Shown: in pieces, positions 762-4,406 of the stretch
Numbering within the stretch: position 1 is the stretch's first letter
How the letters are laid out: the number at the start of each line of letters is the position of its first letter
DNA from: a virus
Taxonomy: Duplodnaviria; Heunggongvirae; Uroviricota; Caudoviricetes
IMG/VR virus record: IMGVR_UViG_2703718784_000009
Coordinates: 1 to 4,406 of that record
Strand: one strand, 5' to 3'
DNA: 4,406 nt
Notes under the pieces: model-generated
What the model saw: the letters and a program-made list of their open reading frames with translations, nothing else
Told to the model about the DNA's origin: nothing
Databases searched by the model: none
Program-made: the position numbers and the translations under genes

Positions 762-800
762 AAAACCCCGCTTGCAGCCAACAAACGGGGTTTTTACTTT
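762..800. terminator. intrinsic (Rho-independent) terminator hairpin, bidirectional, stronger in the plus direction
   Basis: AAAACCCCG (762..770) pairs with CGGGGTTTT (786..794); loop has further internal pairing; followed on the plus strand by TTTTTACTTTTATT. On the minus strand the same hairpin is followed by UUUUGUGUUU. Lies between the endolysin stop (885) and the small ORF start (728). Confidence 0.6.
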
Positions 801-1529: not shown

Positions 1530-1790
1530 ATGGATTATCCAAATCTACCAAAACAAACTTTTGCTGATTTAATCGCACTCAGGCAAGCAGTCGTAGCTCT
1601 AATCAACGTGTTGCCGGATGAGGAAAAGGAATTAGTTAAAGCAATTCTTAACAGAACTGCCGCCGATTTTTCATCATTCCCACTGACAGATGACCTTGCG
1701 GACCTTCCTGAATTAATTGCAGCGTCCGCCATTAAGCTTACTGAAGAGATTTACTCTCCTCAAAAGCCTTCACAAAATTCCTGCGAGTAA
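1530..1790 (+). CDS. hypothetical 86-aa acidic protein, convergent to the late operon (MDYPNLPKQTFADLIALRQAVVALINVLPDEEKELVKAILNRTAADFSSFPLTDDLADLPELIAASAIKLTEEIYSPQKPSQNSCE)
   Basis: ATG 1530..1532 preceded by GAGGTG (1521..1526); stop TAA 1788..1790; a strong intrinsic terminator follows about 20 nt downstream (1809..1845). Helix-like amphipathic composition; AT-rich codons (about 42% GC by hand count). The longer track ORF 1305..1790 starts at a GTG with no SD. The 3' end overlaps gene 1738..2373 by 53 nt on the opposite strand. Confidence 0.55.
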   Translation: MDYPNLPKQTFADLIALRQAVVALINVLPDEEKELVKAILNRTAADFSSFPLTDDLADLPELIAASAIKLTEEIYSPQKPSQNSCE

Positions 1791-2593: not shown

Positions 2594-2668
2594 ACCCCGT
2601 CTCCCGTACTCGGAAGCTCACAACAACAAAAGGGCCACCAGCTCTTTACTGATGACCCTGACTCACCG

Positions 2669-2959
2669 TTACAGCATTGTGCCCGATTCTGGCTGTGTGT
2701 CTGTCATATCCGTCACCGGTGGCTCCGGCTGAATATCACCATTTTCCGTGGTGACATCTTCCGCCTGTGGTTCCGGAAGCAGTTCCGGGGATGGTTCCGG
2801 CTGTGCACCAAGCAATTCATCCAGAATGGCATCCACTTCTGCATCAAGACGCGCCTCAAGGTTCTGCCGAAGTTGCTGTTTCAGTGCGCTCCGGACTTCT
2901 TCAGAGCGCAGGACTTCCTTCACTGCCTCAGCAGTGACCAGCGATTTTATTTCTGACAT
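2669..2959 (-). CDS. hypothetical 96-aa acidic protein with helical N-terminal half and Pro/Glu-rich C-terminal tail
   Basis: First ATG at 2959..2957 (the track ORF extends to a GTG at 3133 but overlaps the neighbouring ORF). Stop TAA 2671..2669. Protein-like sequence MSEIKSLVTAEAVKEVLRSEEVRSALKQQLRQNLEARLDAEVDAILDELLGAQPEPSPELLPEPQ..., whereas the opposite-strand ORF 2748..2975 is serine-rich low complexity. Weak SD (GAGAAAA). Confidence 0.55.
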   Translation of the reverse strand: MSEIKSLVTAEAVKEVLRSEEVRSALKQQLRQNLEARLDAEVDAILDELLGAQPEPSPELLPEPQAEDVTTENGDIQPEPPVTDMTDTQPESGTML

Positions 2960-2996: not shown

Positions 2997-3179
2997 CTAC
3001 GGAATGAGCGGATCTTCGGGTTTGCTTCCGGCTGACTGACTGGCGCTGATTTTCTCTGCGGCCCTTTTATCAATCTGCCTGCGCCAGAAATCGCGCACTG
3101 CCCTGTACCCACCCGAAAGAAGATACATAACACAGACTGCCGTACAGAAGTACAGCATCACCTGATGAACAAATGTCAT
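2997..3179 (-). CDS. hypothetical 60-aa small membrane protein, N-terminal TM helix and basic tail (MTFVHQVMLYFCTAVCVMYLLSGGYRAVRDFWRRQIDKRAAEKISASQSAGSKPEDPLIP)
   Basis: ATG 3179..3177, stop TAG 2999..2997. No SD of its own, but its ATG overlaps the TGA stop of an upstream 14-codon leader ORF (ATGA overlap), which follows another 14-codon ORF that has a perfect GGAGGT SD (see findings). N-terminal hydrophobic helix with positive residues after it. Confidence 0.45.
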   Translation of the reverse strand: MTFVHQVMLYFCTAVCVMYLLSGGYRAVRDFWRRQIDKRAAEKISASQSAGSKPEDPLIP

Positions 3180-3276
3180 AGTTTCTTACCGTTATGGTTG
3201 ACAATGAGAACTGTTTTCATTTAAAAAACCGATATACGAAAGCATCTTTTCTTTACATTCTCCATTGGGATTACCT

Positions 3277-3313
3277 CCGCCAGCTTCCGTTCCTGCCGCT
3301 GGCGGCTTTTTTT
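3277..3313 (+). terminator. intrinsic terminator oriented for plus-strand transcription (antisense to the late operon)
   Basis: CCGCCAGC (3277..3284) pairs with GCTGGCGG (3298..3305), 13-nt loop, followed by C plus TTTTTTT (3307..3313). No U-tract in the minus direction, so it is unidirectional. Confidence 0.55.
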
Positions 3314-3318
3314 GCCGG

Positions 3319-4406
3319 TTATGATGATGCCCGGCTTTCGTTAACTTTGACTGTGACCGTATCAAGCAGTACCGGATACGTCGCTTTTGCCCCCGTGATA
3401 TCTGTCAGCGTCAGCGTATCTGCTGTAAAGTCATCATTTGTCCACATCACAAGGTCAAACGCCGTCTGCTCTGTACCATCAATCACCGGAACGACTCTTT
3501 CGCTGTTATTTCCCGCAAAGCGGAAAACAACCGTATGCCAGTTATGGTCAAACGCACCAAATGTACCCAGTTGTGCATTCGACGTGCCCTTGTGGTGCAT
3601 AAGATTCAGATTTGATGCATCCGTCTGAAGGAAGAATGATGCCAGCATACTGTTTGCTGCCGCGCCTGACGCCCACTGCGACACCGGCCAGTAGAGACCA
3701 AAGACAAACTGTCCGTTCACCAGTTCGCTTCCATCCGGAATTTTGAACCGTACGGCAATTTCACCCCCCTTGCTGAGAAGATTTTTTGCCTCCTCCACTG
3801 CAACAGTACGGAACATTTTCCAGGACATCAGTTTACCGGGCTGTTTTTCCAGTCGCAGCGCTTTCCGTCCACCGTCATCAGTCACAGTGCCTTTGCCGCC
3901 GGAAGCACCCCACTGCTGCTCTGTCAATGCACCATTTCCACTGTTCGCATCATATTCAGCCACCGTCCTGGTACTGCTCACGGCCTCATCATGATCAGTA
4001 CCAGCAACACCGCCATCCTGCGGTTTCTCAACATCCGGTGTCCCCGGACTGACAGGAGTTGTACCACCCGACTGCGGTGCGCTCTGCCCGGTAAGGAACG
4101 ATAATGTCCGCCCGGCGTACTGCAAAATGGCACCTGCCAGGCGGTCTGAAACAAGGCCTCTTCGCGCCCATGAACTGAAGTGCGTTTTACGATCGGCTGA
4201 CGTCCAGTTACTGGCAGTGCGTGACGCAGCGCCATAGTATCCCGCCGGGATAATGTCCCGATCTTCTGACGGCTCGTTTGTCGGCACATTCACACCATGC
4301 TCATCCGTCATCAACGGCACAAAGTGAATATTCTGCGCAGCTTTGCCTTTATACCCACCGTAAACCGCCTCATACGGCGCTGCATACCTTTCCTTCCAGT
4401 AGTACG
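3319..4406 (-). CDS. large accessory ORF of unknown function, C-terminal 362 codons only (5' end beyond the right window edge)
   Basis: Stop TAA 3321..3319; frame stays open to position 4406 (the track start at 4320 is a GTG, and the upstream codons ...YYWKERYAAPYEAVYGGYKGKAAQNIHFVPL are stop-free and protein-like). Contains a Gly/Ser/Thr/Pro-rich linker followed by a beta-rich C-terminal domain (FGLYWPVSQW...WHTVVFRFAGNNSERVVPVIDG...), possibly jelly-roll/lectin-like. It sits upstream of the holin in the operon; the antiterminator Q is not in the window. Confidence 0.85.
   Translation of the reverse strand, partial: YYWKERYAAPYEAVYGGYKGKAAQNIHFVPLMTDEHGVNVPTNEPSEDRDIIPAGYYGAASRTASNWTSADRKTHFSSWARRGLVSDRLAGAILQYAGRTLSFLTGQSAPQSGGTTPVSPGTPDVEKPQDGGVAGTDHDEAVSSTRTVAEYDANSGNGALTEQQWGASGGKGTVTDDGGRKALRLEKQPGKLMSWKMFRTVAVEEAKNLLSKGGEIAVRFKIPDGSELVNGQFVFGLYWPVSQWASGAAANSMLASFFLQTDASNLNLMHHKGTSNAQLGTFGAFDHNWHTVVFRFAGNNSERVVPVIDGTEQTAFDLVMWTNDDFTADTLTLTDITGAKATYPVLLDTVTVKVNESRASS

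Follow-up and report, generated by a model that had tools for sequence, protein, structure and literature searches.

What is encoded in the 139-bp gap between an esterase-type gene and the DUF1378 gene of a tailed phage? We addressed this question in the first 4,406 nucleotides of IMG/VR virus record IMGVR_UViG_2703718784_000009 (Caudoviricetes), hereafter the window, in which all substantial open reading frames (ORFs) lie on the minus strand (ORF list; Pfam identification). The initial annotation, made from the sequence alone, placed in this gap a short plus-strand RNA with its own promoter and terminator, and proposed that it controls a minus-strand leader ORF as Sok controls mok/hok. The RNA itself is supported by the conservation of its signals and by homology to the small RNAs (sRNAs) Esr41 and EcOnc32, and the locus is best explained as an unannotated sRNA gene of this family, with a mechanism that is not new. 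Judged from sequence, the interval is likely to be a compact, self-contained gene for an Hfq-dependent, trans-acting sRNA of the Esr41/EcOnc32 family. The cassette occupies the gap convergently with late transcription.

The promoter begins with a TTGACA -35 hexamer (3198..3203, plus strand), present exactly where it had been annotated and the only plus-strand TTGACA of the window. Within the A/T-rich stretch TTTAAAAAA (3220..3228), which had been described as a weak -10-like element, the best reading is the -10 hexamer TAAAAA (3222..3227, plus strand), separated from the -35 by an 18-bp spacer and matching the consensus at four of six positions, with A at position 2 and a base other than T at position 6. 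A generic promoter scan did not list the TTGACA/TAAAAA pair, because it demands T at position 6 of the -10. Downstream, the annotated Rho-independent terminator is present (3277..3313, plus strand); its 5' arm CCGCCAGC (3277..3284) and 3' arm GCTGGCGG (3298..3305) form an 8-bp GC stem around a 13-nt loop, followed by C and a U7 tract (3307-3313). This hairpin is the RNAfold centroid structure (-15.1 kcal/mol). Under a strict definition (perfect 8-bp stem, at least six G-C pairs, loop of 3-15 nt, T6 within 2 nt) it is the sole terminator on either strand of the window, and such a terminator occurred in none of 1000 dinucleotide-preserving shuffles. As had been noted, no credible plus-strand ORF in the ORF list ends here. 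The promoter and terminator signals are real and not the product of chance, and the unit they enclose is very probably a gene for a regulatory RNA of about 80 nt.

We compared the window with 82 related loci, comprising 80 viral contigs that encode DUF1378 and the copies in prophages Sp5 and Sp3 of Escherichia coli O157 strain Sakai. TTGACA is kept in 81 of the 82, a TAnAAn hexamer lies 17-18 bp past the -35 in every one, and 81 have a perfect stem, 7 bp or longer, and then T6. The RNA body occurs as several alleles, and the terminator loops differ in sequence and are 12-36 nt long. The L051-type allele (seven loci) has an unrelated body and a 36-nt loop, with the same promoter, stem and U-tract. 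For most E. coli matches, homology reaches precisely to the final T of the U-tract (3313), and at least four unrelated esterase C-termini adjoin the cassette at 3313/3314. The conservation of the signals, the variation of the body and of the minus-strand ORFs, and the end of homology at 3313 together identify the plus-strand cassette, from promoter to terminator, as the conserved unit. Since at least four unrelated esterase C-termini adjoin it, the cassette and DUF1378 appear to form a recombination module bounded by the terminator. In Sakai Sp5 (locus L089, 4004..5313), an IS629 element lies inside the esterase gene just upstream of the cassette, and both cassette and DUF1378 are intact.

A profile built exclusively from DUF1378-linked cassettes connected this unit to known sRNA genes. 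Searched with nhmmer against 0.94 Mb of mostly unrelated DNA, it matched the esr41 gene of Sakai (locus L210, 1513..1618) from the -35 to the U-tract (E=2.9e-7; positions 3-118 of the 121 in the profile) and EcOnc32 over its full length (E=2e-5 in the 0.94 Mb; E=1.2e-6 in 58 kb). The only further match at E<=1 was the Sp5 copy, itself a member of the profile. Pairwise z-scores were 7.9 for the window and EcOnc32, and 10.8 to the intermediate allele L054. The Rfam Esr41 model (RF02676) aligned its positions 1-74 with 3239..3313 of the window at 20.5 bits (E=0.066 in a 211-nt search), and scored EcOnc32, L054 and L070 at 32.3, 31.8 and 30.4 bits, respectively. At the Sakai esr41 locus, TTGACA, 18 bp and TATATA precede an RNA that starts 5 nt later (GAUGCUCUAGGCAUCACAUUUUCUCCAUGGGGUAUUCCCUCCGCCGGC...GCUGGCGUUUUUUU), and the -35 and TAAAAA of the window align with the -35 and TATATA of this promoter in the nhmmer alignment. 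The similarity between Esr41 and the cassette (L210 1513..1620) runs from the -35 to about 4 nt past the U-tract. Because homology ends a few bases beyond the -35 and the U-tract, we regard Esr41 as the same cassette in another genomic setting; on sequence grounds, the Esr41 of island SpLE1 looks like a transplanted late-region cassette.

The likeness extends in part to the organisation of the RNA. Esr41 (EcOnc14; RF02676; O157 island SpLE1/OI-43) shares with the window the layout of TTGACA, 18 bp, -10 and an RNA of about 70-80 nt, with a single-stranded (U)UUCUCCAU, a CGCC(A/G)GC...GCUGGCG terminator and U7; its 5' hairpin and short second hairpin have weak putative counterparts in the window. 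Both carry, between stem-loops 1 and 2, the seed motif seen in hybrids recovered by crosslinking, ligation and sequencing of hybrids (CLASH). The two differ in the 5' third of the RNA, which is unrelated (CGAAAGCAUCUUUUC in the window, GAUGCUCUAGGCAUC in Esr41), in the second hairpin, which is weaker in the window (GGG/CCU), in the terminator loop, and in the -10 (TAAAAA as against TATATA). Their settings also differ: Esr41 lies in SpLE1 downstream of iha, whereas the window cassette adjoins DUF1378 in a prophage late region. EcOnc32, in Sakai prophage Sp3, occupies the same slot as the window cassette (esterase remnant, cassette, holin) and is likewise convergent with the late genes, with a remnant of the DUF1378 start beside it. 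The L054 allele stands as an intermediate between the two. EcOnc32 differs from the window in its 5' hairpin (AUGUGUGUUACAU), in a longer terminator with a 25-30-nt loop, and in the seed variant UUCUCCAC.

Both relatives are established RNAs. EcOnc32 was recovered as a peak in five of five Hfq datasets obtained by crosslinking and analysis of cDNA, has a Rho-independent terminator and was detected on Northern blots at about 112 nt (Tree et al. 2014), which, in a further difference from the window, is longer than its promoter predicts. The published EcOnc32 probe corresponds to the cassette strand convergent with the late genes, save for one G absent from a G-run. Esr41 is an sRNA of about 70 nt with Hfq-dependent regulation of ler and effects on ler and the enterocyte effacement locus (LEE) and on motility; its repression of chuA, cirA and bfr works through direct pairing, as proven with compensatory mutations. 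In RNase E-CLASH hybrids, (A)UUUUCUCCAUGG of Esr41 is ligated to targets carrying CAUGGAGAA (chuA, ECs1681) or UGGAGAAAA (ECs2279), and ACAUAUCAUUUCUCCACGGGGAAU (AUCAUUUCUCCAC) of EcOnc32 adjoins the entC ribosome-binding site GUGGAGGAUGAUAUG. In the literature, neither EcOnc32 (main texts) nor the locus tags ECs1210, Z1467 and L0106 led to anything useful. An older version of the Sakai sequence underlies the EcOnc coordinates in Tree et al. 2014 and in Waters et al. 2017; these coincide with NC_002695.2 at 0.9 Mb and run about 135-140 nt below it at 1.27-1.42 Mb (AsxR, Esr41), which matters for mapping published peaks. On NC_002695.2 the Sp5 copy of the cassette occupies 1272087-1272202 (minus strand), and Sp15 holds a further copy.

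The sRNA predicted for the window would be about 80 nt long (3234..3313, plus strand). From the position of the -10 and the alignment with the Esr41 promoter we infer a 5' end near 3234 (3233-3235), and the 3' end would lie within the U-tract. RNAfold, applied to the window and its variants, places a weak 5' stem-loop, GAAAG / CAUC / UUUUC (3238..3251, plus strand), at the position of Esr41 stem-loop 1; it has five base pairs including a G-U pair, and in variant L073 two substitutions turn it into a perfect 6-bp stem. The second hairpin has three base pairs (GGG/CCU), with two non-canonical positions in the cmscan alignment. Between the two hairpins the window reads ACAUUCUCCAUUGGG, and the candidate seed AUUCUCCAU (3257..3265, plus strand) contains the family-invariant UxCUCCA, whose columns do not vary across an alignment of 22 variants. 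The invariant motif is UUCUCCAU, which in CLASH hybrids is the part of Esr41 joined to complementary target sites, and it is unpaired in most predicted folds. The seed is shared with Esr41, and AUUCUCCAU complements the chuA site perfectly over 9 nt (-17.6 kcal/mol), a duplex equalled by one of 300 shuffled RNAs.

These features suggest how the RNA might work. Transcription from a predicted sigma-70 promoter (-35 TTGACA, 18 bp, -10 TAAAAA) would start near 3234 and stop about 80 nt on at the Rho-independent terminator (3277-3313), against the esterase stop codon, which lies 5 nt from the U-tract. It would converge with phage late transcription and, in a lysogen whose late operon is silent, the sRNA would be made alone. 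Hfq would be expected to bind through the U7 tail, the expected Hfq-binding 3' end, and through the U-rich body, both of which are usual features of Hfq class I sRNAs. The exposed AUUCUCCAU could then pair with GGAGAA/AUGGAGAA-like sequences at or near the ribosome-binding sites of host mRNAs. The examples of Esr41 (chuA, cirA, bfr) and EcOnc32 (entC) make iron-uptake and iron-storage genes the likely targets, and repression of translation the likely effect. The promoter itself carries a Fur-box-like near-palindrome, GACAATGAGAACTGTTTTC (3200..3218, plus strand), which overlaps the -35 and the spacer and, at 13/19 matches to GATAATGATAATCATTATC, is the best in the window. EcOnc32 has in the same place AATAATGATAATGTTTATA (locus L085, about 2704..2686, minus strand), which matches the Fur consensus at 15/19 as against 13/19 in the window. 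In tiles of unrelated DNA, matches of at least 13/19 occur at 0.2% and of at least 15/19 at 0.007%. The Fur-like palindrome, taken with the iron-related targets of the family, gives a hint of iron-responsive (Fur) control of the sRNA promoter, drawn from a consensus count alone.

Several observations weigh against this assignment. The 20.5 bits that the window reaches are far under the RF02676 gathering score of 102 bits, and as the scores stay under this threshold the window variant falls outside the curated Esr41 model. The -10 is weak, with its position 6 not T, and a 13-nt loop is large for efficient termination. The transcript, its 5' end and its Hfq binding are predictions for the window allele, as they are for the closely related Sp5/Stx-phage allele. 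The Sp5 copy is absent from the EcOnc list of Tree et al., which the filter used there (retaining peaks antisense to coding sequences or more than 100 bp from them) may explain. Duplex energy was uninformative or confounded for four of the five CLASH target fragments: ECs1681 and ECs2279 paired no better than shuffles, entC was average, and the bfr duplex, which beat shuffles (2/300 as good), was set aside because nearly the whole RNA, terminator included, takes part in it. The fold stability of the whole RNA is not unusual (z = -1.7). Covariation of the hairpin, which the initial annotation had proposed as a check, is not seen: for 22 variants RNAalifold returned the invariant 7-bp core of the terminator alone, with no covarying pair. 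MAFFT mis-registers the longer EcOnc32 and L054 stems in these alignments.

The minus strand of the interval invites a different reading, that of the initial annotation, in which the RNA acts in cis as Sok does: it would pair with the late mRNA at the Shine-Dalgarno (SD) sequence and start of the leader ORF and gate a coupled DUF1378, in an arrangement like a type I toxin-antitoxin system. We consider this very unlikely, although its geometry is accurately described. By construction, a transcript from about 3234 to 3313 is complementary to about 80 nt of late mRNA, including the GGAGG (3278..3274) and ATG (3265..3263) of the leader ORF (mini-ORF1, MENVKKRCFRISVF; 3221..3265, minus strand), and in the minus-strand mRNA the 3' arm of the hairpin overlaps GGAGG by 2 nt, partly covering the SD as had been stated. 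In the window, mini-ORF1 abuts (TAA then ATG) a second frame, mini-ORF2 (MKTVLIVNHNGKKL; 3176..3220, minus strand), whose stop overlaps the DUF1378 start codon as ATGA and which is present in 72 of the 82 loci; DUF1378 is short, with one hydrophobic helix. Against this, mini-ORF1 is not a conserved gene: depending on the allele it has 3, 4, 5, 6, 14, 15, 23, 24 or 25 codons, and it is missing from seven of the 82 loci, which retain DUF1378, promoter and terminator. In Sakai Sp5 it has four codons and ends 37 nt before mini-ORF2, so that the coupling chain is broken. Mini-ORF2 is probably fortuitous; the L051, L054 and L070 alleles have lost it and retain DUF1378, promoter and terminator. Where the initial annotation envisaged a terminator lost from loci that retain the small ORF, the relationship is reversed, with the terminator kept in 81 of the 82 and the ORF variable or missing. 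EcOnc32 retains the cassette although DUF1378 is deleted alongside, and Esr41 is the same cassette without any DUF1378-type neighbour. The neighbouring protein has no Hok/Gef match, PF07125 being its only Pfam family at E<=0.01, and the Rfam Sok model (RF01794) gave no match at E<=1 in the window or at E<=10 in 3150-3360. The RNA does not overlap the ribosome-binding site of DUF1378, and the generic promoter scan found no minus-strand promoter-like site for a toxin mRNA in 3180-3320. The likeness to Sok/mok/hok consists in an independently promoted, short antisense RNA that faces an SD and start codon upstream of a small hydrophobic protein; the window differs in having no Hok-family toxin, conserved mok-like frame, Sok model match or toxin-side promoter, and in that its RNA cassette is found elsewhere without such a neighbour. 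A Sok/mok/hok role is not supported. The minus-strand SD and ATG consist mainly of UUCUCCAU, the seed of this family, and the terminator base, both in reverse complement, and the SD and start codon read there mirror an sRNA seed aimed at SD/start regions. Given the inherent complementarity, the RNA may also affect the late transcript in cis, which would be a secondary role.

The same minus-strand features could instead belong to the late mRNA, as a hairpin, SD and mini-ORF that serve in processing, stability or ribosome loading between the esterase and lysis genes, a possibility to which we attach very little weight. The combination of hairpin, GG(A/T)GG and (A/G)TGGAGAA is found in 75 of the 82 loci, and EcOnc32, with GTG in place of ATG, still has a start codon. 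However, A and T alternate among alleles at the middle position of the SD, the L051 allele has neither SD nor ATG, and in Esr41 the same sequence lies outside a late operon, where it is known as an sRNA. On the late strand A7 precedes the hairpin and no U-tract follows it, so its polarity fits the plus strand. The fold stability of the late strand is not unusual (z = -1.1). It is also highly improbable that the locus is a terminator or insulator only, which halts stray plus-strand transcription into the esterase gene beside an inactive TTGACA/TAAAAA. The terminator is indeed the strongest single signal, the -10 is weak and the generic scan made no promoter call. Yet the -35 and, at a fixed distance from it, a TAnAAn -10 match the terminator in conservation and persist where the mini-ORF is lost; they align with the promoter of Esr41, whose RNA starts just past the -10, and homologous cassettes yield discrete RNAs of about 70 and about 112 nt. 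An extension of the trans-acting sRNA reading would give the locus two linked roles, trimming of host iron genes by the sRNA in the lysogen and a sponge activity of the late transcript on induction; we think this unlikely. If it were true, a possibly Fur-controlled Esr41-type sRNA would trim host iron-uptake and iron-storage genes in the lysogen, and the late transcript, with its perfect 80-nt complement, would act as a sponge and RNase III substrate that removes the sRNA. Its AUGGAGAA seed complement would also soak up the Esr41-family sRNAs of other prophages in the cell, the lytic switch would be coupled to host iron physiology, and with up to seven copies per cell a cross-talking network might arise.

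We return to the Esr41/EcOnc32-family sRNA and to the other prophage sRNAs among which it would stand. PasA and PasC (EcOnc51/52) of enteropathogenic E. coli (EPEC) E2348/69 are Northern-verified, Hfq-dependent RNAs of 79-85 nt. They share the slot and orientation of the window cassette, convergent between a sialate esterase gene and the holin/lysis genes, as well as a TTGACA promoter and a GCCAGC...GCTGGC terminator against the esterase stop codon. Homology to them is not demonstrable, however, as nhmmer found only the PasC terminator (E=0.25) and nothing in PasA; features generic to promoters and terminators inflate the pairwise z of about 5. They lack the UUCUCCAU motif, and the reported PasA seed lies within the terminator stem. 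PasA/PasC are at most a positional analogue or a very distant relative. In EPEC E2348/69 (locus L003, 2766..3035, minus strand) and Sakai Sp12 (locus L088, 1930..2190, plus strand), PasA/EcOnc51 is followed by a tandem PasC-type unit; this second unit abuts the esterase stop codon, which agrees with the reported 236-nt minor PasA species. AsxR, AgvB, StxS, PasD/STnc100 and HnrS are short Hfq-associated RNAs that act on host mRNAs or sRNAs in lysogens, AsxR and AgvB as sponges of host sRNAs. Like the window cassette they are self-contained units in the region from Q to the lysis genes of Shiga toxin (Stx)-type prophages, and they differ from it in their unrelated sequence and in lying 3' of stx, upstream of the esterase gene, or after Rz. 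HnrS (EcOnc10-12), which lies after Rz, and AsxR and AgvB, which lie 3' of stx and upstream of the esterase gene, were considered as identities for the cassette and rejected on location. A 2026 preprint reports Rfam Esr41 matches near PasD, on the other side of the esterase gene; these are probably the cassettes described here.

The cassette is widespread, and common in Stx-type prophages. The exact allele of the window is carried by PhiR12_1 and by O104:H4 2009EL-2050, and ATCC 25922 has a 97% allele. Its 121 nt occur at 1994 places in 947 of 5426 complete E. coli genomes (median 2, up to 7 per genome), including strains other than Shiga toxin-producing E. coli such as ATCC 25922, in which the gene order is that of the window, and ST131. 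No annotated feature lies under the cassette among the E. coli matches listed. It is also present in eight plasmid records, all from Escherichia, and in 305 phage records, mostly of Stx1- and Stx2-converting phages including VT2-Sakai and VT1-Sakai, with some Shigella phages. Most of the phage matches listed have no feature at the site, and the rest only 'hypothetical protein' or 'region VI'. A pattern scan (TTCTCCAN{9,16}CGCCAGN{10,40}CTGGC) over 596 Gb of contigs proved too loose, returning 120 chance matches in unrelated taxa; these loci were reused solely as background DNA, for the nhmmer search and the Fur-box tiles.

Esr41 appears in the literature as an "EHEC-specific" (enterohaemorrhagic E. 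coli) single-locus sRNA of SpLE1, and its Rfam model detects near-identical copies only. In the present data the same promoter-seed-terminator cassette occurs, as several alleles, in lambdoid prophage late regions. Should these copies be expressed, the pool of UUCUCCAU-seed RNA (targets chuA, cirA, bfr, entC) would be much larger and more variable between strains, deletion of esr41 alone may leave activity, and Stx phages would deliver a regulator of iron acquisition together with the toxin. A broader covariance model and annotation of these loci are called for.

Read in reverse, the window as a whole corresponds to a lambdoid prophage's late/lysis region, as assigned from its Pfam gene content and from the gene order of its BLAST relatives. 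The gene whose 3' part borders the cassette (3319..4320, minus strand) encodes the DUF6645-domain C-terminus of a large late protein (Pfam), and is annotated in relatives as a SASA family carbohydrate esterase or nanS-p type. On the other side lies the DUF1378 gene (2997..3179, minus strand; PF07125, E=1.8e-37), which encodes 60 amino acids with one N-terminal hydrophobic helix and corresponds to PHROG 494, where its function is given as unknown. It is followed, all on the minus strand and identified by Pfam, by DUF826 (2669-2959), a phage-21-type class II holin (2378-2593), DUF1327 (1738-2373) and the phage lysozyme R (885-1418), giving the order esterase, cassette, DUF1378, DUF826, S21-type holin, DUF1327, lysozyme R. 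By BLAST, the region occurs at 99-100% identity in the Escherichia phages PhiR12/PhiR5, and also in an Stx1c phage; the genes there run Q, (stx), esterase, DUF1378, DUF826, S, R, Rz.

Further features of this region were observed away from the cassette. A possible moron gene is an 86-aa ORF (1530..1790, plus strand) that lies on the strand facing the late genes, shares sequence with the DUF1327 gene at the 3' end of the latter, and is followed by plus-strand terminator-like hairpins (1841-1858, 1933-1960). Phage PhiR12_1 lists its product as a 'DUF1823 containing protein'; Pfam gave no family for it here at E<=0.01. Between the lysozyme gene and a 71-aa ORF, a 14-bp hairpin flanked by A and T runs (762..794, both strands) resembles a bidirectional terminator, and a weak Rfam rimP-leader match at this site (27.5 bits, threshold 47) reflects the hairpin alone. 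The late strand also has, within the late operon and between the genes for DUF826 and the holin, a hairpin that resembles a terminator and has a T-rich tail (2631..2659, minus strand), and similar hairpins are found upstream of the holin in Sakai Sp3 and Sp10.

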